This document shows positions 1,697 to 44,547 of a stretch of 64,000 bases of DNA, in pieces. Origin of the DNA: a virus; IMG/VR virus record IMGVR_UViG_3300031132_000002; one strand, given 5' to 3'. Position 1 is the stretch's first letter, and every line of letters begins with the position of its first letter. Position numbers and translations under genes: made by a program. Under the pieces are notes generated by a model. That model did no database searches, had not been told where the DNA came from, and was given only the letters and a program-made list of their open reading frames with translations.

Positions 1697-2333
1697 TTCT
1701 AACGTCCTCCAGCGACTTATGATATTCATCTACATTCTGACCAACACCAAACTCCTTAGCCTCTTTTGTCATATTGATATAAGGCGTAGGATTATTACCA
1801 AAAACATCGTCTGGATGAATGTAAGCCATAACACGAACTGGACAAGGGAATCCGTAGATACCTTGGTTAAGCAACCCTGCTTTCTGCAACTCTTGGATAC
1901 GGTATACATATTCAGTATCTTCGAAGCCGTAAGCATTTGTGAAGCGACGATAGAAGCCAGCCGTCTCTACGAGTTTACGTGAGTACAGTGCAAACTGGAC
2001 GAGACAACGTTCAAAGGCTAGAATTTCTCCACCATTACCGCCGACAATAGGATCTTTAAAATACTCTGGCATTCCGAAGAAGTCCCAGCCTTGCTCTGCC
2101 TGAGAGACAAAGTAATCCTGCCAACCATCCATCGCAGGATGAACATCGTCATCGAAGATAAACCAGTAATCGCAGCCTTCCTCGTAAAACTTATTCATCA
2201 GGAAGTTTCTGCCATAAGCAGCACCCTTCCGCTCTGTATCATTGAATACTTCGAACAGATCACCCTCGCGTAAACGATAATCTGGGAGTGGACGTTTGCC
2301 CACTGTAATTACTCCAATACCAATCTTAGACAT
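1653..2333 (-). CDS. Glycosyltransferase, GT-A/GT2-like
   Basis: GAAYGRN, YWFIFDDD (DxD), YGFEDTEY acceptor motif. Confidence 0.8.
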   Translation of the reverse strand: MSKIGIGVITVGKRPLPDYRLREGDLFEVFNDTERKGAAYGRNFLMNKFYEEGCDYWFIFDDDVHPAMDGWQDYFVSQAEQGWDFFGMPEYFKDPIVGGNGGEILAFERCLVQFALYSRKLVETAGFYRRFTNAYGFEDTEYVYRIQELQKAGLLNQGIYGFPCPVRVMAYIHPDDVFGNNPTPYINMTKEAKEFGVGQNVDEYHKSLEDVRNGKVYWSYAEAQGI

Positions 2334-2913
2334 TTGATTCTCCTGGTGTGTACACTTTGGAGAAGTCTTGGCAATGCATCAGATGGCTAATCGCACGTTG
2401 AGGATCTTCTGCACCTAATCGATATAGGTGGAAAATATAAATACCTCGGGCAATGCCTAGACGCTTTCCTGCCTTCTTTAACTTCTCAGACAAAATAATA
2501 TCAAACTGAATAGATTTCTCTTCAATAGGAAAATCTTTCCATAATGACTTTCTGAACAGCAGGAACATTCCAGCTAACACTTGGTCATCAGGGACTTCTT
2601 CAATTTGAAGTTTGTGTTCTTCGTAGGCTTGAACCGCAAGATCCATATGAAAGAGAATATCTGGGTTCTCGCTACGTCTACGGTCGAATAGTTGATATGT
2701 ACCGCCTAAGCGGTTTGTTGCACATCCGATAAGGTCAAACTCAGGATTTGATGCGACTAGTTGCTCAATCCAAGCTCCCTGTTGGGGATGAAGAAACATT
2801 GTATCTGTGTCTCTTAAGCAGATCCAAGAGTCATCGGGAAGGCTACTGATTGTCTCGTTGATTGCTTTGCCGATATCCCCTGTATGATAAGGGGTGATGT
2901 GATAGATGCTGAT
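2326..2913 (-). CDS. Glycosyltransferase, GT-A/GT2-like, apparent ATC start
   Basis: Frame open 38 codons upstream of ATG 2799, adding GKAINETI..WICLRDTD (DxD); LAGMFLLFRK and IFHLYR motifs; SD AGGAGG before ATC 2913. Confidence 0.7.
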   Translation of the reverse strand: MSIYHITPYHTGDIGKAINETISSLPDDSWICLRDTDTMFLHPQQGAWIEQLVASNPEFDLIGCATNRLGGTYQLFDRRRSENPDILFHMDLAVQAYEEHKLQIEEVPDDQVLAGMFLLFRKSLWKDFPIEEKSIQFDIILSEKLKKAGKRLGIARGIYIFHLYRLGAEDPQRAISHLMHCQDFSKVYTPGESNV

Positions 2914-3008
2914 AACGTCCTCCTACAAAAATGTGGAGAGGTTTTCTCTCCACTTCTTAATACTACCACCAAAAGTGTTTGATGGGAAATCGGTTTTACC
3001 TATCAATC

Positions 3009-3182
3009 TTAAGAGCGGGACTTAATCTCCGATAATACATTGATAAGTAACATCCTTTCATCTTCGAGCGCTGCTCCTAGTTCACGAACGTTATCTGTTG
3101 CAACGTCACGAAGTTTAATCAGCTTATCTGTACTGATAGTGCTGAGGTCATCCCAGCGGTCAACTACCTTACCATCCTTCAT
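3009..3182 (-). CDS. Hypothetical 57-aa protein
   Basis: Own translation MKDGKVVDRWDDL...; fits operon packing. Confidence 0.5.
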   Translation of the reverse strand: MKDGKVVDRWDDLSTISTDKLIKLRDVATDNVRELGAALEDERMLLINVLSEIKSRS

Positions 3183-3387
3183 CTTCTACAGCCCCCGCTA
3201 CTTTGATTGCACATTCTTTACACAAACCCTGAGAGCTATTCTTTTCAAAACTGATAAACGGATCATAAGGTTGTTTCCGGCTATCGTGAATAGTGTCTTT
3301 CAGGCAGTTTGCGCACAGGTATTTTTTAACTGTGAACTTTTCAATCTTCTTTTTACGATTGAAGTCTACCTTAATTACGTCACCCAT
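3169..3387 (-). CDS. Small Zn-binding protein
   Basis: CANC and CKEC pairs; TAATG coupling to upstream gene. Confidence 0.6.
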   Translation of the reverse strand: MGDVIKVDFNRKKKIEKFTVKKYLCANCLKDTIHDSRKQPYDPFISFEKNSSQGLCKECAIKVAGAVEDEGW

Positions 3388-3674
3388 TAATGTACCTCCC
3401 GATAAATAGCTGGTTGTGCGGCTGTGATGCCGGTATGCATTGCCTCTTTGTTCTCTGTGTAGAGTAACCAATACTCACGACAGACGACTAAAGACAACAT
3501 CAGATATTCTTCGTGGTCAATATATTCAATCTTCCACAGAATGTCTTCATCTTCCAGCTTTACACCGAAAACAGGAAGCATACGCTCCAGGTTACAACGA
3601 GATTGGAACACTTCTTCTTCTGTCATCCCATTAATCAGCACGTTTGCCACTACAGTAGTATTATCGCGTTCCAT
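3387..3674 (-). CDS. Hypothetical protein
   Basis: ORF with SD AGGAG. Confidence 0.6.
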   Translation of the reverse strand: MERDNTTVVANVLINGMTEEEVFQSRCNLERMLPVFGVKLEDEDILWKIEYIDHEEYLMLSLVVCREYWLLYTENKEAMHTGITAAQPAIYREVH

Positions 3675-3684
3675 TTTATATCTC

Positions 3685-4164
3685 CTATTTGTAAAATTGA
3701 TGTTCTTTGTATCTGTAGACCAACACCATATCACGTTGCCAAGCTGTTCTTACAGTTCTTTTCTTAAAGTGTGTAGCGCCTTTCGTAGGATCTGCTGCCT
3801 TTCTGACCTCGGGAAAGTTTGCATCTAAGTATAACAGCTTCTTTGCTATCACCTTAGCATCTTCCCAACTCTTTTTGTCGTAGGCTCGGAAAGAACCTGC
3901 TCCAGTATACGAGAATTGTCCTCTTTGGTACAGCACTCCTTTCACACTACTAGGGTATCCAGAATCATCGGTGCGATTGATAACCACATTACCAACAGCA
4001 ACCATTCCTTTCTTACCCTGACCTCGACTCTCAGCATACATTGCACAGGCTAATAAGTCAACCTTCGCATCATTCCTTGTACACTTATGCGAGACTGAGG
4101 TTTTTGCATCAACACTTGGAGATACTACAGCAAGAGTTAACGCAAGTAAAGGTGCAACTAACAT
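3685..4164 (-). CDS. SleB/CwlJ-type cell wall hydrolase (Hydrolase_2) with signal peptide
   Basis: LLACAMYAESRG, AVGNVVINR, VLYQRGQFS, DPTKGATHF, HQFY; hydrophobic N-terminus. Confidence 0.92.
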   Translation of the reverse strand: MLVAPLLALTLAVVSPSVDAKTSVSHKCTRNDAKVDLLACAMYAESRGQGKKGMVAVGNVVINRTDDSGYPSSVKGVLYQRGQFSYTGAGSFRAYDKKSWEDAKVIAKKLLYLDANFPEVRKAADPTKGATHFKKRTVRTAWQRDMVLVYRYKEHQFYK

Positions 4165-4277: not shown

Positions 4278-4877
4278 TTACTCAAACCACTCTGGGTCAG
4301 CACCGAAGGCTGTGAATGCATCTAGAATGCTACCGCTCTTACCTGCGCCAACACCTACGATATCCCAGCCACCTGCATCAGAACGTTTCAGAGAGGCTAC
4401 GTGGATGATGCTACGACCAGCGTGTTCTTTCTCCAAGAAGTTGAAGTCCAGTACAGTTTCGTTGGTCTCCATATTAACCAGTTCCAGCAGACCTGATGTT
4501 GCATTACCGAAGGTCAGGCTGTCTGAGTCATCGTCGATGGTCAGAACAAATGGGATCTCAGTGACGTCTTCTGGCAGAGTTTCCAGGTTAATATCGATGG
4601 TTTCAAAGTCGCCAGTACCATCACGAACGTCACCACCGTAGAATACAGAGCGGCTCGGGTCAAAGCCATTCGTAGGGGCATAGAACACGATGTGACGAAC
4701 ATCAATAACTTCTGGATAACCTTTAGCGTCATTACGACACAGCAGCGCTGAGCAGTCCAGATCCAGTTTAACATCAGAAGTCCAGTTAAAGCGCATCAGA
4801 ATCTTTTTCAGCAGCGGAGCAACTTTACGCAGTGATACTTTCTCAGAGTTACCTTTTTTCAGTGATACCTTAGCCAT
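4278..4877 (-). CDS. terD: TerD-family stress protein
   Basis: VSLRK N-terminus, LDLDCSA, VFYxGDVRDG, ETIDINLETLP, WDIVGVG. Confidence 0.88.
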   Translation of the reverse strand: MAKVSLKKGNSEKVSLRKVAPLLKKILMRFNWTSDVKLDLDCSALLCRNDAKGYPEVIDVRHIVFYAPTNGFDPSRSVFYGGDVRDGTGDFETIDINLETLPEDVTEIPFVLTIDDDSDSLTFGNATSGLLELVNMETNETVLDFNFLEKEHAGRSIIHVASLKRSDAGGWDIVGVGAGKSGSILDAFTAFGADPEWFE

Positions 4878-4907
4878 TATATTCTCCTTTCTCTTATTCA
4901 GTTAAAA

Positions 4908-6908: not shown

Positions 6909-8021
6909 TTAAGCTCCTTTGTTTACAATACCAGTACGGATTGTCTGAACAATACCATCTTCAAGTTCGCCTACACGGGTAATGTATTCGATACGTTCTT
7001 GACGAGCATTGTTATTAATTTCATTAATCGCTTCCAGATCTTTAAGCAGTGTTGCCTGCTCACGTTCCAGAGTTTCGATGCTCAACACCTGACGGTTAGC
7101 CAGACGTGCTGCTTCTACGCGGTTTGCAGAAGCTAGTTCACCACCCAATGCGATAGCATTGTTGAACTCATCAATCGTGTTGTTAAGCGCTTCTGCTGCT
7201 TTTTTCTGACGCATACTGTGAACATATGCAGAGAATGCTGCGGTATATGCTGGAATAACGTTTGTCAGTACGTTATTACTTGCACGGATAAGCTGACGAC
7301 CAACTTCCTCCATACCTTTAACACGTTGACCAAACTGAATCATCAACAGACGAAGTGCTGCGAGGTCATTGATTCGAGTTTCAATCAGATCCATTGTAGC
7401 ACGTTTATCTGAACGAGCCTCAACTTCTTCCTCAGGAATACCATCAAAGGTCTCCTGCTCACGAGCAAGATTTGCAGAGAGAAGTTCAATATCACGATTC
7501 AAAGCCAGTGCATAGTGTCCTGCCTGCTCACGCAGATTACGCAGTTGATGCTGACCGTCTTTCTCGCGTTTCAGATCTTCATTAAGCTCATTCACCAGAA
7601 CGTTGATACGACCATCGATTGTATCAAACTGCTCAAAGATATCTTCTTTGATACCGAGAACACGCTTCCACAGTTTCTTGAGTCCAGTAGAATTCTTCAT
7701 ACTGTTTGGATCAAGTTGTTTAGTCTCTTTCACCAAGGCATTCAGGCGATTAGAGAGTTCATCACCGTTATTCGCACGTTGATGTTTTAATACCTGGGAT
7801 GCTACGGTTTTAATCTGCTGACCTGCGGCTGCACCAGTAGACTGAATATCATCCTCAGACATTACAGCCGGAAGCGTAGTTTGCTTAGCCGTCACTGCTG
7901 GAGCAAATACCGGACTTTCTGCTAAAGGGTTATTCAGTGCTGACTTAACTTCCTTCTCTACTGTTGCCATTGGGCTACGAGAGCGCGAAGCGGTTGATGC
8001 TTTCAGGAACGGACTAGTCAT
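6909..8021 (-). CDS. telA: TelA-like toxic anion resistance protein
   Basis: 370-aa coiled coil with LDPN, RINDL, VIP, A..NRQVLSIETL features; next to TerD/vWA. Confidence 0.8.
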   Translation of the reverse strand: MTSPFLKASTASRSRSPMATVEKEVKSALNNPLAESPVFAPAVTAKQTTLPAVMSEDDIQSTGAAAGQQIKTVASQVLKHQRANNGDELSNRLNALVKETKQLDPNSMKNSTGLKKLWKRVLGIKEDIFEQFDTIDGRINVLVNELNEDLKREKDGQHQLRNLREQAGHYALALNRDIELLSANLAREQETFDGIPEEEVEARSDKRATMDLIETRINDLAALRLLMIQFGQRVKGMEEVGRQLIRASNNVLTNVIPAYTAAFSAYVHSMRQKKAAEALNNTIDEFNNAIALGGELASANRVEAARLANRQVLSIETLEREQATLLKDLEAINEINNNARQERIEYITRVGELEDGIVQTIRTGIVNKGA

Positions 8022-11040: not shown

Positions 11041-11062
11041 AAAAGCCTCCCGAAGGAGGCTC
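11041..11062 (-). terminator. Intrinsic terminator
   Basis: GCCUCC-UUCG-GGAGGC followed by U run. Confidence 0.75.
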
Positions 11063-11067
11063 TATTT

Positions 11068-12132
11068 TTATTCAGTTGCTTCTTCTAAAGCTTCTTTCTT
11101 GTTGAGTACGTGGCTGTGGTAAACCGCTGCACCCAGGAAAGCTACGCCAATCAGACCAGTTACTACTTCCGGCACTTCGAACACAAAGTTCAGAAGCATA
11201 ATCACTGCCAGGCACAGGATAGCGAAGAAAGCTCCGTTCTCCATATAGCGGTATTCACCCATATGTCCAGACTCAAGTACGTGGAGAGTCATAGAACGTA
11301 CAAACAGTGCGCCAATGCCCAGACCAATCATAATCACCAAGAAGTACTGTGTGATAGCGAATGCTGCAATCAGTCCATCAAAACTCATAGATGCATCCAG
11401 AATCTCCAGGTAGATAAAGCCAGCCAGACCTGATTTAACCGCCATTCCTGTAACTTTAGCCATTGCTTCATCTTTCGCTTCAAGCCACTCAGACAGTAAG
11501 TGGATACCCAGGAACAGCAGGACACCTACTGCACCAGAAGCTAGGAACGGTACACGTTCTGCTTGTTCTGCACCAAAACTTGCTGCAATCAGTGCTACTA
11601 AAGTAATACCAACCTGTACTGTAAGACTACCGCCCATCTTAGCTAAAGGTTTTTCAATCCAACCCAACCAGTGATTATCTTTCTCATCATCCAGGAAGAA
11701 GCCCAGAGCCACCATTAACAGGAATGCACCACCAAAACTCGCTACCAGATGATGACTAGACTGTAACACCTCTGCATACTGCTTAGGGTCATTGAAGCCT
11801 AACCATACTGCGTGCCAAGGTGTCATTTCACCCAGACCAGCCACAATCAGAATCGGAAGCACCAGCCGCATACCAAATACCGCAATCAACATACCCCAGG
11901 TAAGAAAACGCTTTTTCCAAACCTCATCCATATCTGCCAGTTTCTTTGCGTTCAGTACTGCATTATCTGCTGAGAGAGAAACCTCAAGAACAGACAGAAT
12001 CATCACCGCCACCAAACCTTCAATCAATCCGGTAATAGTACCCGTCTCTGCGAATCCGATGTAACCGCCGAGTGCGATACCGATACCCCAAAGGATTGTT
12101 GGGATCTTATAGTATTTCATAAATGTGTTCAT
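11068..12132 (-). CDS. TerC-like integral membrane protein (DUF475/YkoY type)
   Basis: LEVSLSADNAVLNA, FLTWGMLIAVFGMRL, LEILDASMSFDG, IGALFVRSMT; about 9 TM segments. Confidence 0.9.
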   Translation of the reverse strand: MNTFMKYYKIPTILWGIGIALGGYIGFAETGTITGLIEGLVAVMILSVLEVSLSADNAVLNAKKLADMDEVWKKRFLTWGMLIAVFGMRLVLPILIVAGLGEMTPWHAVWLGFNDPKQYAEVLQSSHHLVASFGGAFLLMVALGFFLDDEKDNHWLGWIEKPLAKMGGSLTVQVGITLVALIAASFGAEQAERVPFLASGAVGVLLFLGIHLLSEWLEAKDEAMAKVTGMAVKSGLAGFIYLEILDASMSFDGLIAAFAITQYFLVIMIGLGIGALFVRSMTLHVLESGHMGEYRYMENGAFFAILCLAVIMLLNFVFEVPEVVTGLIGVAFLGAAVYHSHVLNKKEALEEATE

Positions 12133-20537: not shown

Positions 20538-22352
20538 TTACAGGAACAGAGGAACAAAGTACGGAGTACCGTTCACAACTACCTGCATATGTGTTGAAGC
20601 TGTGCCTGGGGTTGTTGGTGTACCTGTTGCAGTACTAACCGCCAGTAAGTTGCCCTGAGCACCTACACCAGCGCTACCGTTATGTAAAGACATACGCGGA
20701 ACGACAGCGTTTAAACCAGGAGAAGCAGACTGTGTAGCACCACTTACAGTGAACAGCGCACACTGACCTTGATCAAAACGTGTAGGAGACGTGCTCTTAA
20801 CGTTAATGACGTATTCACCAGTATAAGGCCCAAACTGTACCCAGAGAGCAGGTAGTGTTTCGTTATACTGCTGGTTTGCGTATTGAGCCGCAGTAACACC
20901 TGTAGCACCGAAGTGATACATAGTCACGATAGGAATGTTACCCGCACCACGTTGGATGTTGATAATAGTCTTACCAGGAGATCTGTCTGATTGTACTGGA
21001 TAGTTTGCGCTACCTACTGAGTTGTAGCTCAGACGAGAGATGATTTCAATCTCCCAGATACCACCGTTGTTCGGTGTATAGAAGCTACCAAGGTTCAACC
21101 AAATGTTTGCATTGGCATTGTTAGTTCCACGTAGAGCACCAGTATACCATTTAGCTTTCATTGTACCGTTGATAACGCTACCAAAAGCCTCGTCCTGACG
21201 GTTTCCTTGGTCATATCCAGAAGCCCACTGACTAACAGTTGTGTTAGTTCTGTTGAAACTGGCGTTGATTAGGTTGATACCACGCATTGATGCACGGCAG
21301 TAAGTCAGGTCAAATGGAGTATCAATGTTCTCAAGGTCGAGTCCGTCAATCAACCACTGTCCGTTAGAAAGGTCTCCGGCGTGTTCGGTGTGCTCGATCC
21401 ATCCGTTGTAGATGAAACACTGAGTAGCACGAGGCGCATAGATCGAAGCGTTTGTACCAAAACCGTGTTGCAGGTTGAAGTTGCTCAGTTCTAGTGCCGT
21501 CGAGTGATCCCAGCTTCCTACTGTGGCATTGTCGTAAGTCACGTCCAGGACGCTATCATACGTATTGCTACTGTAGAACTGATCAATCTTCGTGTCTAGT
21601 GTATCGATCAAGCTAAGGCTCTTACCACCCATATAGGAGAAGCGAACACACTTGATACGAGCGTACTGACCAGCAGAACAGATGTTACGGAAGAAGCCCA
21701 TTGTGTTGACTTTCTTATCGTACTGTCCATATACCAAGATACCAGTAATCTCTGTGTAACGAGCCTGAACTTTAAATGCGTAGTCTGCGCTACCATCAAG
21801 GATCAGAGTTGTTAGTGCCATATAACCTAGTTCTACATCTGGGCCAGCCATTTTGAACTTAGATACATATGTCGCAGAGTAATCCCATCCAGATACAAGG
21901 AAGCTACCAGCAGGGAAACGGATTCCGAGGGTAGACAGGTATGTATTTGCAAAGGTATTCATTCGCTGGATAGCAGGTTGAGCATCAACAGTTCCACCCG
22001 GCATAGCACCGAAGTCGGTAACGTCTAATTTGTCATATTCTTTCTCACGTAGCCAGAAATAAGTTTTACCGCTATCGGCAGCGTGAACACCACCATCATC
22101 TGCAATCTTACCAGCTAAGTTACCAGTAAACCAACCGCTACCGTGGAAACTACCGTCAGATACTGCATTATAAGAAGAAAGAAAGACTCGTTCACCCGTA
22201 GCCGTTGGTTTAGCAGCTTTAAGTTCTGCCCAAGACTTGAATGTACGATAAAAAGGATGTGCAGCAATGTACGCAGCAATTTGATCGCTAACGTCTGGCG
22301 GGGTTACAGTGCCGCCTCCACCACTACCATAGGGTTGTCCGAAAATTACCAT
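20538..22352 (-). CDS. AmsF/WceF-like tailspike-fold exopolysaccharide depolymerase
   Basis: ELKAAKP..GERVFL..G.GWF N-domain, VTDFGA..D..PAIQ..RFPAG beta-helix start; own promoter and terminator; family assignment from recall. Confidence 0.7.
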   Translation of the reverse strand: MVIFGQPYGSGGGGTVTPPDVSDQIAAYIAAHPFYRTFKSWAELKAAKPTATGERVFLSSYNAVSDGSFHGSGWFTGNLAGKIADDGGVHAADSGKTYFWLREKEYDKLDVTDFGAMPGGTVDAQPAIQRMNTFANTYLSTLGIRFPAGSFLVSGWDYSATYVSKFKMAGPDVELGYMALTTLILDGSADYAFKVQARYTEITGILVYGQYDKKVNTMGFFRNICSAGQYARIKCVRFSYMGGKSLSLIDTLDTKIDQFYSSNTYDSVLDVTYDNATVGSWDHSTALELSNFNLQHGFGTNASIYAPRATQCFIYNGWIEHTEHAGDLSNGQWLIDGLDLENIDTPFDLTYCRASMRGINLINASFNRTNTTVSQWASGYDQGNRQDEAFGSVINGTMKAKWYTGALRGTNNANANIWLNLGSFYTPNNGGIWEIEIISRLSYNSVGSANYPVQSDRSPGKTIINIQRGAGNIPIVTMYHFGATGVTAAQYANQQYNETLPALWVQFGPYTGEYVINVKSTSPTRFDQGQCALFTVSGATQSASPGLNAVVPRMSLHNGSAGVGAQGNLLAVSTATGTPTTPGTASTHMQVVVNGTPYFVPLFL

Positions 22353-22388
22353 TAAGATATTCCTTATATAAGGTAAGATCCCATTAAA

Positions 22389-22430
22389 GGGGTATTCCTT
22401 CATTATACCCCAATCATAGGATTTAGTCAA
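22389..22430 (-). promoter_or_regulatory. Near-consensus sigma70 promoter of the depolymerase gene
   Basis: TTGACT-17-TATAAT; -10 overlaps GGGGTAT...ATACCCC repeat. Confidence 0.75.
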
Positions 22431-41222: not shown

Positions 41223-41369
41223 ATGAAACAATATGTAATGGCTATTCACTTTAAATCAGGCGCAACGGTATGCACACCGGATCTATATGCGATTCGTCAA
41301 CGTTGTAAGCGTCTTAAATCGGAGTTGAATAAAAATAAAGATTGTGGTTTTCGTCGCTGGGGTTTATAA
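41223..41369 (+). CDS. Hypothetical 48-aa protein
   Basis: Own translation MKQYVMAIHFK...; promoter TTGACC-17-TAGTAT. Confidence 0.55.
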   Translation: MKQYVMAIHFKSGATVCTPDLYAIRQRCKRLKSELNKNKDCGFRRWGL

Positions 41370-41446: not shown

Positions 41447-41713
41447 ATGGCTTCTTTCAGCGCAACAATGTTTAAACTTTCAGCTATGGGTGACAAAGTG
41501 ATCGCCGGATCTGGTAGCTTTGCGAATATTTCTATTGATGGGCGTTTAAGCCTGGCGGCGGCTATCGAAGTGGCGCGGGAAAACTTAAAGAAAGAAGCAG
41601 GCGCGGCGTATATCGGATTTGCAATCGAAAAAACATCCCGATTTGTTGACTATAAAAACCCTGTGATTGTTGATTCACAGTTAAAAGCAAAAGAAGTGAT
41701 GTTTTTACTGTAA
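41447..41713 (+). CDS. Hypothetical early protein
   Basis: Own promoter and SD. Confidence 0.65.
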   Translation: MASFSATMFKLSAMGDKVIAGSGSFANISIDGRLSLAAAIEVARENLKKEAGAAYIGFAIEKTSRFVDYKNPVIVDSQLKAKEVMFLL

Positions 41714-41813: not shown

Positions 41814-41984
41814 ATGAAAACTTTCACCACTCGCAACGAAGCCCGCGCAATCCGTAAAGCAGTAAACGAGAAAGTAAAAGCGTCTGGTAGCAAAGCAACC
41901 TTGCGCGACCCTGTGAAAAACGATGATGGGCGCTGGTCATTCCCTGGTATCTCACACGGTAAGAAACTAACTCTGAAAAAGTAA
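41814..41984 (+). CDS. Basic 56-aa protein
   Basis: Own translation MKTFTTRNEARAIRK...; promoter TTGACA-17-GATAAT. Confidence 0.6.
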   Translation: MKTFTTRNEARAIRKAVNEKVKASGSKATLRDPVKNDDGRWSFPGISHGKKLTLKK

Positions 41985-42068
41985 GATTATTTTACAAAGG
42001 GCTTTTGCAAATAATAATAGCCCTTGATAGAATACTCTCACACTAACAAAGCAACCAAGGACAAGAAA

Positions 42069-42401
42069 ATGACTACCACTTACACTGAAATCCTGGCAAA
42101 TGCAATCGTCGCTTTTAACGAGCGTATCCAGTGCGATAACTTAACGATTGTAAGCGATTCAAGCGATGCATTGCACGAAGTGGCGGATCATTATGTTCCC
42201 CATTACTACAAAGAAATTTTTGAGGTAATGGCGTCAGAAGGTATTGATCACGAATTCGAAGACAGCGGATTGATTCCTGAGACAAAAGATGTTACGCGGA
42301 TTTTGCAGGCTCGCATCTACGAACAACTTTACATTGACATTCAGAACTCAAATGATTTAGTATGGTGTGAATCAGATTTCGGAGAAGAAGAAACAGAATA
42401 A
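42069..42401 (+). CDS. ocr: Ocr (T7 gp0.3-like) DNA-mimic anti-restriction protein
   Basis: VPHYY.EIF.VMASEGID.EFEDSGL.P.TKDV.RILQARIYEQL.ID matches the T7 Ocr core as recalled; promoter TTGCAA-17-TAGAAT. Confidence 0.93.
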   Translation: MTTTYTEILANAIVAFNERIQCDNLTIVSDSSDALHEVADHYVPHYYKEIFEVMASEGIDHEFEDSGLIPETKDVTRILQARIYEQLYIDIQNSNDLVWCESDFGEEETE

Positions 42402-42550
42402 CGATTTTTCGTGTTGCCTCCTGGTTAGGGGGCAATGAGAAAGAAAGTTAAAAGATTTAGAAAACAGTTGTTGACTCTGAATCAAAAAAGCGTAGAATGT
42501 TTCATATCAGGACAACAAAGGGTTGTCCCTAACAGAGAAGAGAAAATATT

Positions 42551-42901
42551 ATGACTATCGCAACCATCAAAGCAAACATCGAAGCTAAAAAATTAGAAAT
42601 CAAAGAAAAGCAAGCTGAAATGGATAATTTTGAAATCACCGTTAGCGAAAGAGAATATGATGATTTTCTGAATGATTGTTACGAAGAAGTAGAAATTTGT
42701 GGTCAAACTTATGCGCCAGCTTATGCTCTTAAGATGGTTGATGAAATATCTTACAATACGGGAAAGAGTGACTACGAAGGATCACAAGAGAAGGAAGAAA
42801 ACGAAGATTACAAAGAGCTAATGGAAGATCTGGAGACATTAGAATCTGAACTAGAAGATCTCGAAAGTGAGTTAGAAGAGGCAGAAGAAAACGAAGAATA
42901 A
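42551..42901 (+). CDS. Highly acidic protein, candidate DNA mimic
   Basis: About one third Asp/Glu; promoter TTGACT-16-TAGAAT. Confidence 0.7.
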   Translation: MTIATIKANIEAKKLEIKEKQAEMDNFEITVSEREYDDFLNDCYEEVEICGQTYAPAYALKMVDEISYNTGKSDYEGSQEKEENEDYKELMEDLETLESELEDLESELEEAEENEE

Positions 42902-42988
42902 TCTAAAATAGTTGTTGACCTTTAATTCAGAATAACAGATAATACTTATCAGACGGCGGGAAAGTCTCTCGCCATAAGCGAGAATAAA

Positions 42989-43144
42989 ATGCAAAAGTAT
43001 ACAATCCAATGTGAACAGGCAGACGGCACAATCTGGAGTCCTGACTGGCGTTTATCTTTCCAGGACGCGCAAGAGATGAAACAGCAGTATAAAGAAGTGT
43101 TTACTTTATGCAAGAGTTGGAAAGTTATAAAAATAAGTAAATAA
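42989..43144 (+). CDS. Hypothetical 51-aa protein
   Basis: Own translation MQKYTIQCEQADG...; promoter TTGACC-17-GATAAT. Confidence 0.55.
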   Translation: MQKYTIQCEQADGTIWSPDWRLSFQDAQEMKQQYKEVFTLCKSWKVIKISK

Positions 43145-43218
43145 TTGTTGACTGTAAACAAGAGACATTATAATATAGTGTCTCTGATTTAGAGAAACAA
43201 CCACCACTAACTAGGAAA

Positions 43219-43785
43219 ATGAAAATGACTATCATCGAAATCACAGACAACACAACTAAACGCCAGTTAGTGAAGGGCTTGAAAAAGTTGGGTAAAGGAT
43301 TGTTCACTGAGTGTTTCGAATTGAGTGATAGTGAAGTACTGTTAGTAAGTGAAGATCCGTTGAAAGAAGTCTACTCAATGGGCTGGCTGTGTGATACACT
43401 GTTTCCAGTAACTGAGAGAATAGATTGCTTAGCAAGCGGCGAGAATATTTTCAAAATGAAACAGTATACAAAAGTTTCAAGCCTGAAAAATAGTTTAGAA
43501 GCAGATCAATACGAAATTTATAAAACTTTGCGAAAGGCTCAGGATGTGTTAAAGTGTCCTAGCAACCTTTATGACAGTTACAACGCGGTACACGATGCAT
43601 TTTCAACGATTGAAAATGACGAGTTACGCACGACAATGATTGAAGCGCTGGATGATGTAGCGAATTACGGATCTGATGTAATGTTTGAGATTTCACCGCG
43701 AAATGTTGCAGTAGACAACGGCAAGCTGATTCTGCTAGACTGCTTCTTTATGCGCAGTAAAGCAAACGAAATGCGTAACAAATAA
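43219..43785 (+). CDS. Protein-kinase-like fold protein (T7 gp0.7-like motifs, degenerate)
   Basis: LGKGLFTECF Gly-loop; FEISPRNVAVDNGKLILLD catalytic and Mg-binding loops. Confidence 0.55.
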   Translation: MKMTIIEITDNTTKRQLVKGLKKLGKGLFTECFELSDSEVLLVSEDPLKEVYSMGWLCDTLFPVTERIDCLASGENIFKMKQYTKVSSLKNSLEADQYEIYKTLRKAQDVLKCPSNLYDSYNAVHDAFSTIENDELRTTMIEALDDVANYGSDVMFEISPRNVAVDNGKLILLDCFFMRSKANEMRNK

Positions 43786-43813
43786 TCTAACTAAACTTAA
43801 AGAGGGTATAAAG

Positions 43814-43948
43814 ATGCAATACACAAACAAAGCTGAAAAAATGAAGTCGGGCAAACGTGCGGCATTCGGTGAAGTTGTGATCAAGAAGGGCGCAAAGCTG
43901 AATAAGACAACGCGAGGAGTCAGCAATAAACGCAACTGGCAAGAGTAA
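43814..43948 (+). CDS. Basic 44-aa peptide resembling T7 gp1.1
   Basis: Own translation MQYTNKAEKMKSGKR..KGAKLNKTTRGVSNKRNWQE. Confidence 0.55.
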   Translation: MQYTNKAEKMKSGKRAAFGEVVIKKGAKLNKTTRGVSNKRNWQE

Positions 43949-43950
43949 CA

Positions 43951-43977
43951 AGAGGGGGCGCAAATAGCGCCCCTTTC
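43951..43977 (+). terminator. Intrinsic terminator
   Basis: GGGGCGC-AAATA-GCGCCCC-TTT. Confidence 0.65.
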
Positions 43978-44058: not shown

Positions 44059-44268
44059 ATGAGACACGATACACCAGCTAACAACCTCCCCGCCCTTATC
44101 AAACAATGGAATCAATCTAACAGGATGATAGCACGTTACTATGATCAACACGGCTTCCCTGTGTGGGGCATTGTCCTGGACATTAACGAAAAAGAATCAC
44201 AAATAACTATTGATCATAGGTCTAACTGTGTTAGTATGTCTGCATTGATTGAGACAAAACAGGTATAG
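44059..44268 (+). CDS. Hypothetical protein
   Basis: ORF, weak SD. Confidence 0.45.
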   Translation: MRHDTPANNLPALIKQWNQSNRMIARYYDQHGFPVWGIVLDINEKESQITIDHRSNCVSMSALIETKQV

Positions 44269-44277
44269 GATTTAAAA

Positions 44278-44547
44278 ATGATTGCTGCAAACTCCCTAGC
44301 TTTTTTCTCTGATATCGTGCCAGGCGTGATCCTGGAACATAAAGAGATCTATGCGACAGAGAAGACTTTTAAATTCTCTTTCCACAACAGAAAAGTAGCA
44401 ATCGCGGTATCTGTTGAAAATAACTATTGTGTTTTAACGTATGTGTGCGATAATGGTTTTCGTCAGGTGAGCGATAGCGCAGAGCTAGCCACCCAAGACA
44501 TTCCAGCAACTATCGTTGCTATCGTTAATGATTATATGACAGCTTAA
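44278..44547 (+). CDS. Hypothetical protein
   Basis: SD AGGA. Confidence 0.6.
   Translation: MIAANSLAFFSDIVPGVILEHKEIYATEKTFKFSFHNRKVAIAVSVENNYCVLTYVCDNGFRQVSDSAELATQDIPATIVAIVNDYMTA

Follow-up and report, generated by a model that had tools for sequence, protein, structure and literature searches.

A likely mosaic early region with Ocr and a predicted minimal kinase-fold protein in a phAPEC8-like virus genome

Introduction

How genes familiar from the early region of phage T7 come to stand side by side in the genome of a much larger virus is the question raised by a stretch at 41.2-44.0 kb of the IMG/VR record IMGVR_UViG_3300031132_000002, of which 64,000 nucleotides (nt), referred to here as the window, were analysed. 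A first-pass annotation, made from the sequence alone, had picked out four open reading frames (ORFs) in this stretch, encoding an Ocr homologue, a very acidic protein, a kinase-fold protein and a basic gp1.1-like peptide, and had understood them as a T7-style anti-defence cassette shared between unrelated phage lineages. Based on the collective evidence obtained in the current analysis, the stretch appears best understood as the early host-takeover region of a ~148-kb phAPEC8-like (Stephanstirmvirinae-related) myovirus, in which resident early genes alternate with slots of variable content and one of these slots accommodates a protein of predicted minimal kinase-like fold that may act on host proteins. 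Taken together, these elements form a reading to which we assign a probability of roughly 0.62.

Results

Gene content of the early region

Short ORFs follow one another in a row on the + strand of the 41.2-44.0 kb stretch, and all four ORFs of the first-pass annotation are found among them:

41223..41369, + strand: gp0.6A homologue, 48 amino acids (aa), by similarity to T7 gp0.6A and phrog_8393; absent from the first-pass list
41447..41713, + strand: resident early gene, 88 aa; phrog_8099, E=6e-32
41814..41984, + strand: basic resident early gene, 56 aa, isoelectric point (pI) 10.8; phrog_13689; left border of variable slot A
42069..42401, + strand: Ocr (gp0.3-type DNA mimic), 110 aa, by PF08684, phrog_2568 and similarity to T7 Ocr
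42551..42901, + strand: very acidic protein, 116 aa; phrog_9294, E=1e-14; predicted helical hairpin with conserved LESELEDLESELEE tail
42989..43144, + strand: ORF of 51 aa, 71% conserved in the metagenomic relative L003
43219..43785, + strand: minimal protein-kinase-like protein by predicted fold (AlphaFold2), 188 aa; phrog_11084, E=2e-46
43814..43948, + strand: gp1.1-like basic peptide, 44 aa, pI 10.6; PF08200, E=8.3e-12, 45.8 bits (cut-off 21)

The helicase encoded in the window is 69% identical to the phAPEC8-type helicase, which indicates a phAPEC8-like genome backbone and agrees with the myovirus-type genome proposed initially. When 20 kb of the window, or the module itself, was compared by megablast with 50,697 phage records, no near-identical isolate was found.

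Three of the genes are homologues of T7 early genes. The product of 42069-42401 matches Pfam PF08684 with E=1e-31 (109.8 bits, cut-off 25; profile positions 4-97 of 101) and phrog_2568 ('ocr-like anti-restriction') with E=1.4e-42, and it shares 56% identity with T7 gp0.3 over 96 aa (E=9e-36). With a net charge of -20 and a pI of 4.09, the protein is a true Ocr as judged from these similarities, as had been claimed. Its ATG at 42069 is preceded by AAGGA and is positioned inside a TTG-started frame of 42024-42401. The closest relatives belong to Kayfunavirus/K1F-type phages (66-69% identity), and by analogy with T7 the protein would most likely block type I restriction and BREX (bacteriophage exclusion) through DNA mimicry. 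An even sample of 40 from the 572 Ocr-matching isolate records consisted entirely of T7-like podovirus records of 8.8-45 kb; an Ocr in a ~148-kb myovirus is unusual among sequenced isolates.

The gp0.6-like gene at 41223-41369 encodes a protein 62% identical to T7 gp0.6A over 39 aa (BLASTP, E=1e-17), and phrog_8393 recognizes both this protein (E=1.7e-17) and T7 gp0.6A (E=3.3e-35). Its orthologue in L003 carries PF26851 (Phage_T7_0_6), and the gene is identified from these matches as a true T7 gp0.6 homologue. T7 gp0.6 reportedly inhibits MreB. Similar genes, at 57-68% identity, are present in phi92-type (Justusliebigvirus) and other isolates of ~142-150 kb.

For the 43814-43948 peptide, the match to PF08200 lies above threshold, and the relationship to gp1.1 suggested by the first-pass annotation is thus upheld. 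Over 19 aa (E=6e-7), the peptide shares 63% identity with T7 gp1.1, the aligned part being the stretch that had been quoted in the first instance, and phrog_2490 is common to both. Genes of this type occur in dozens of phAPEC8-type isolates, where they are 51-53% identical to the peptide over the full length, and we regard it from its family matches as a true gp1.1 homologue. In a tblastx comparison of the whole T7 genome with the 64-kb window, only 0.3 and 0.6 give a match, the short gp1.1 requiring a profile search for its detection.

Resident genes and variable slots

Comparison with related genomes reveals which of these genes stay in place and which do not. The whole arrangement is kept in L003, a metagenomic relative of 85-90% protein identity. 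The metagenomic relatives L012 and L013 retain the acidic and the gp1.1-like genes and have, between these two genes, either a DUF7222 gene accompanied by one of 104 aa or just one gene of 95 aa; no ocr is present. In L007 and L009, the gp1.1-like gene is kept together with the kinase gene and one additional gene, no ocr was detected, and L007 has a gp0.6-like gene as well. Klebsiella phage ZCKP1 carries two unrelated genes between its 56-aa and gp1.1-like genes. The 88-aa gene has counterparts at 60-63% identity in phi92, phAPEC8 and related myoviruses, and the 56-aa gene is 42-54% identical to genes of ~143-155 kb Klebsiella/Escherichia myoviruses, phAPEC8 types included.

The simplest reading of these comparisons is a mosaic early region with variable slots, a proposal that shares the probability given above with that of the mini-kinase. 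The resident scaffold would consist, in this order, of the gp0.6-like gene, the 88-aa gene, the 56-aa gene, slot A, the acidic 116-aa gene, slot B and the gp1.1-like gene. Exchangeable cargo in the present genome would then be ocr in slot A, and the 51-aa gene together with the 188-aa mini-kinase gene in slot B. The resemblance to T7 may accordingly mean that enterobacterial phages draw early genes one by one from a common pool, and not that a block was transferred.

Block transfer, in which a colinear T7-style cassette (0.3, 0.7, 1.1) moved between podovirus and myovirus lineages, was the reading put forward by the first-pass annotation. It draws on the ocr, kinase-fold and gp1.1-like genes standing in the relative T7 order of 0.3/0.7/1.1 within 1.9 kb, on the confinement to 2.7 kb of every T7 homologue detected in the window, and on the kinase and gp1.1-like genes staying linked in diverged relatives. 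Against this, the gp0.6 homologue is located upstream of ocr, so that the T7 homologues of the window read 0.6, 0.3, 1.1 and the T7 order is broken; for three genes, moreover, the chance of any one order is one in six. Standing between ocr and the kinase gene, the acidic gene is a resident, kept elsewhere without ocr or kinase, and the gp1.1-like and gp0.6-like genes are themselves widespread residents of ~145-155 kb Stephanstirmvirinae isolates. Relatives of the window genome carry other cargo between the acidic and the gp1.1-like genes. The kinase-fold protein, finally, is placed outside the gp0.7 family, and Dickeya phage Luksen encodes it alongside a genuine gp0.7 homologue, as described below. 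A cassette moved as a block is thus already largely refuted, and we consider it very improbable.

Additional genes of variable position were noticed in the relatives. L003 has an extra 189-aa gene (11055-11624), flanked by its homologues of window ORFs 44059-44268 and 44278-44547; its absence from the window suggests another variable spot in the early region. The slots of L007 contain a Cys-rich 98-aa protein (3119-3415; phrog_18452, labelled DNA ligase) and an acidic 130-aa protein (3513-3905; phrog_25535), and the DUF7222 protein of L012 is encoded at 4465-4899 in the variable slot. For these slot proteins of L007 and L012, a similar early function may be considered.

The 188-aa protein is distinct from the T7 kinase

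The first-pass annotation had related the 188-aa ORF to gp0.7, the T7 kinase (T7K), by three motif pairs. Alignment confirms that the T7 motifs quoted there (LGNGHF, FDMHSGN and ITD) are present in T7 gp0.7. No significant profile match connects the two proteins, however, and the proposed kinship is not sustained. Of the kinase PHROGs 2828, 15752 and 18305, all of which are matched by T7 gp0.7, none matches the 188-aa protein at E <=1. Alignment of the two family alignments by hhalign recovers the 17-residue Gly-rich loop (G-loop) only, with a probability of 4%, and hmmsearch between the 188-aa family and gp0.7 stays below 10 bits in both directions, where it must be considered that the gp0.7 profile is narrow (at least 57% identity to T7) and a broader one might see more. 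BLASTP of the 188-aa protein against gp0.7 returns weak colinear pieces only (E=0.026). In a precomputed table, PF27024 is assigned to all of the listed gp0.7 relatives and to none of the listed relatives of the 188-aa protein.

Both genes are present in Luksen, a T7-like Aarhusvirus, which encodes a mini-kinase (1102-1635) as well as a T7K homologue (2194-3252). The latter has 352 aa, is 33% identical to T7K (E=1.6e-37) and adjoins the RNA polymerase gene. Together with the profile comparisons, the co-occurrence in Luksen implies that mini-kinase and T7K are different genes, presumably with different jobs. A gp0.6-like gene (1632-1793) follows directly after the mini-kinase gene in the same early region.

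One might still regard the 188-aa protein as a shortened, fast-evolving gp0.7 orthologue that has lost the C-terminal shut-off domain. The spacing of the motifs is T7K-like (121 compared to 132 residues from the Gly to the Asp/Glu, and 18 compared to 17 from there to the Asp), local motifs are similar, and T7K-type kinases are among the nearest viral structural neighbours. The failure of the profile comparisons just described, the lack of PF27024 in the listed members and the presence of both genes in Luksen all speak to the contrary. So does the sequence DCF/DVF found after the Mg-binding Asp, where T7K has as its conserved motif DPV in place of DFG (PMC13645617). We give this possibility hardly any credence and conclude, from profile and motif comparison, that the 188-aa protein falls outside the gp0.7 family.

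A minimal kinase-like fold in a widespread family

The 188-aa protein has no match in Pfam (used in a set without PF27024 and PF26851) or in NCBIfam. AlphaFold2 (AF2), run on an alignment with 45 relatives, predicts its structure with a mean predicted local distance difference test (pLDDT) score of 94.8 and a predicted template modelling (pTM) score of 0.87. The model is that of a bilobal, protein-kinase-like fold, as had been anticipated, and the three motif pairs of the first-pass annotation turn out to occupy structurally equivalent sites. In a Foldseek comparison with the PDB, protein kinases and aminoglycoside phosphotransferases (APHs) are retrieved with probability 1.0 and E from 3e-4; the scores are middling and the match list is almost uniform, SAICAR synthetase at rank 48 of the representative-chain search being the sole neighbour listed that is not kinase-like. 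A 169-residue OspG chain is also among the PDB neighbours. Among predicted viral structures, the protein's own family is matched first, followed by an uncharacterised protein of Acinetobacter phage Presley; further neighbours include T7-type kinases of Enterobacter, Klebsiella, Yersinia and Pectobacterium phages (E 6e-7 to 1e-5, template modelling score ~0.5), and one of the viral neighbours, A0A7L7SMK1, has been named a T7K homologue (PMC13645617). As judged from the model, the 188-aa protein has a minimal protein-kinase-like fold.

Conservation is concentrated at the positions expected of a nucleotide-binding kinase core. Invariant in the 46-sequence alignment are G25, G27 and F29 in the Gly-rich loop, K49, N162 in the sequence F-E-I-S-P-R-N, and D174 in L-L-D-C-F, while E157 is nearly invariant; K49 would be the ATP-anchoring Lys. 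The GxGxF loop, the invariant Lys, the catalytic-loop Asn and the Mg-binding Asp are kept across phrog_11084, in which 238 of 260 members have the pattern F-E-[ILVM]-[ST]-P-x-N. The position of the catalytic base is taken by Glu in 238 of the 260 (E157 in the window protein) and by Asp in one, and the Mg-binding Asp is part of DCF in 172 members and of DVF in 49 (D174-C-F in the window protein). The chain ends 14 residues past D174, so that the C-terminal lobe (C-lobe) beyond the Mg-binding Asp is absent.

An exhaustive profile search for phrog_11084 yielded 806 clusters at 50% identity. Of the 150 representatives ranking best, 142 stand alone as proteins of 156-209 aa, one is a 133-aa fragment and seven have 235-297 aa. 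Isolates with a member comprise Kayfunavirus and other T7-like phages, Seuratvirus, Klebsiella podoviruses, ~98-kb Pseudomonas phages and a Cellulophaga phage; none of the 40 matching isolate records listed is from known rV5/phAPEC8-type phages.

Proposed role of the mini-kinase

Considering sequence and model, the 188-aa protein might work early as a catalytically active phosphotransferase on host proteins and, in so doing, probably counter host defence. We advance this proposal tentatively, at odds a little short of even. It is suggested by the gene's location in early regions, its exchange for ocr in Kayfunavirus and its retention beside T7K in Luksen, the last of which argues for a separate, non-redundant role. 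The exchange is seen in the comparison of Kayfunavirus GA2A with K1F, whose early regions are colinear at 85-97% DNA identity and differ at one locus, occupied by the mini-kinase gene in GA2A (1138-1662) and by ocr in K1F (1114-1623), with flanks of 85-90% identical DNA. A T7K homologue was not found in GA2A or K1F. The 0.3 locus of T7-like phages is known to alternate between Ocr (T7) and S-adenosylmethionine (SAM) hydrolase (T3/SH1), and the mini-kinase family member of SH4 is listed in the same work without function (PMC4925675). Sharing of a locus with known anti-restriction genes is the main reason to favour a role in counter-defence, and it is an argument from position only.

The protein could, alternatively, not be a protein kinase at all, but an APH-type small-molecule kinase acting on a signalling nucleotide or metabolite, or a silent, ATP-binding pseudokinase that binds a host protein. 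Replacement of the catalytic Asp by Glu in 238 of 260 members would fit with such a function, as would the presence of APH(4)-Ia and APH(2'') among the top PDB matches in Foldseek and the absence of a substrate-binding C-lobe beyond the Mg-binding Asp. The invariant nucleotide- and Mg-binding positions, on the other hand, argue against a dead scaffold, and the viral structural neighbours that come after the protein's own family include phage protein kinases. We therefore consider both variants of this explanation unlikely, though by no means negligible. An active phosphotransferase directed at host proteins is retained as the preferred proposal, and extending it to the whole of phrog_11084 would give a widespread class of minimal phage kinases whose catalytic loop relies on Glu, serving as early counter-defence enzymes, interchangeable with Ocr in Kayfunavirus, found alongside T7K elsewhere, and maybe completed or regulated by the gp1.1-like peptide. 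So broad a generalization is speculative, and its odds of holding are poor.

Transcription signals

Host-type promoter-like sites were found before four of the five genes considered, and a probable terminator closes the region:

41991..42033, + strand: promoter-like, overlapping sigma-70-like matches before ocr (TTTACA-16-AATAAT, 10/12; TTGCAA-17-TAGAAT with extended TG)
42471..42498, + strand: promoter-like site of the acidic gene (TTGACT-16-TAGAAT, 10/12)
42915..42943, + strand: promoter-like site of the 51-aa gene (TTGACC-17-GATAAT, 10/12)
43148..43176, + strand: promoter-like site of the kinase and gp1.1-like gene pair (TTGACT-17-TAATAT, 9/12)
43952..43976, + strand: GC-rich hairpin, then a tail partly rich in U (10-base-pair stem, -19.1 kcal/mol, z=-4.6, matched in 0 of 200 shuffles)

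Between 40000 and 46500, promoter-like sites number 32, compared to 14.9 +/- 4.1 in shuffled sequences. The earlier statement that most genes of the module have a sigma70 promoter of their own holds for ocr, the acidic gene, the 51-aa ORF and the 188-aa ORF, each of which is preceded by such a site; it does not hold for the gp1.1-like gene, for which none was found. We infer that the region is transcribed early by the host RNA polymerase. The stop of the kinase gene is separated from the start of the gp1.1-like gene by 28 nt devoid of a promoter match. Together with the lack of an own promoter and the hairpin after the gp1.1-like gene, this short gap makes the two genes look like a single transcription unit; they are probably co-transcribed, with the 43952-43976 hairpin probably as their terminator, and their linkage across diverged relatives hints at a possible functional pair. 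An extended promoter word, GTTGTTGAC, was also considered as a signature and was dropped, its 21 matches in the window comparing with 16.3 +/- 4.4 expected.

The acidic protein and other genes of the window

The first-pass description of the 116-aa protein as very acidic is accurate: 39 Asp/Glu are set against 10 Lys/Arg, for a net charge of -29 and a pI of 4.05. The AF2 model (pLDDT 95.4) portrays a helical hairpin with a conserved acidic heptad as its tail, and fold searches give generic coiled-coil matches only. Pfam and NCBIfam produced no match for it, and the protein atlas offered only unnamed viral clusters; relatives are encoded by rV5-type phages and on large metagenomic contigs, the latter reaching 147.6 kb. 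That it might be a DNA mimic is a guess. The 51-aa protein has no family match in Pfam, NCBIfam or PHROG. A basic ORF of 39 aa (42435-42554, + strand) overlaps with the acidic gene's promoter and leader; its last 24 codons alone are conserved in L003, where no gene is called, and it is probably not a gene.

Elsewhere in the window, the - strand encodes a glycosyltransferase (686-1729, phrog_7162), a tellurite-resistance-type protein (6909-8021, phrog_5890) and a tail protein of the exopolysaccharide (EPS)-depolymerase type (20538-22430, phrog_4250).

Discussion

A mosaic early region is in itself ordinary. What lends interest to the present one is the Ocr in a large myovirus and, to a larger degree, an abundant mini-kinase family distinct from T7K. 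T7K disarms many bacterial defences by promiscuous phosphorylation, and the homologue search of that study used the PHROG 2828 profile (PMC13645617), which does not detect phrog_11084. A second kinase-fold family, of far smaller proteins (~800 clusters, with lengths of 160-190 aa) and found in podovirus, siphovirus and large-myovirus early regions, would widen the view of phage phosphorylation against hosts. The natural swap of ocr and mini-kinase in Kayfunavirus provides a ready-made experiment, and the variable slots point to a compact set of early genes, namely those of the acidic 116-aa protein and of the 51-aa peptide, together with the cargo genes of the relatives.

Several considerations weigh against the interpretation given here. 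Three T7 homologues and a kinase gene within eight consecutive genes would arise with a chance of ~0.01 if ~40 early genes were placed at random (our own estimate), and clustering so unlikely by chance suggests some local clustering force. The argument from the slot is one of guilt by position, and the early regions of T7-like phages also hold non-defence genes. Glu in place of the catalytic Asp in nearly all family members could mean a different chemistry or no catalysis. Literature searches returned no paper on the phrog_11084 mini-kinase family and no report of activity for its members.

Comparison with known systems

The Ocr of the window resembles T7 Ocr (gp0.3) in being strongly acidic and in being encoded by an early gene with its own host-type promoter. 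It differs by the genomic setting, a ~148-kb phAPEC8-like myovirus as compared to a 40-kb podovirus, and by a shorter acidic tail. The gp1.1-like and gp0.6-like genes are direct sequence homologues of their T7 counterparts, both encoding small basic early peptides, whereas their surroundings are different: in the window and in phAPEC8/phi92-type myoviruses they belong to an early region presumably read by the host polymerase, and the gp0.6-like gene comes before ocr.

With T7K (gp0.7; PHROG 2828, PF27024) the mini-kinase has in common the kinase-like fold, a G-loop of LGxGxF type, a [D/E]-x4-N loop, a Mg-binding Asp 17-18 residues after the D/E of that loop, the location in the early region and Foldseek neighbours. 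Distinct from T7K, which has 359 aa, the mini-kinase is restricted to ~170-190 aa without a shut-off/DNA-binding domain, and it shows Glu for the catalytic Asp and DCF/DVF for DPV. Shigella OspG (PDB 4q5h) is a minimal effector kinase of bacterial origin, to which the 188-aa protein is unrelated in sequence; OspG retains the catalytic Asp and becomes active in eukaryotic cells once it has bound E2-ubiquitin.

The closest parallel in genome organization is the alternation of Ocr and SAM hydrolase at the 0.3 locus. In Kayfunavirus, mini-kinase (GA2A, SH4) and ocr (K1F) share a locus in like manner, a position that may hint at an anti-restriction role of the mini-kinase. Different from that alternation, the phAPEC8-like genome of the window has accommodated both ocr and the mini-kinase gene, two genes apart, in a single early region.

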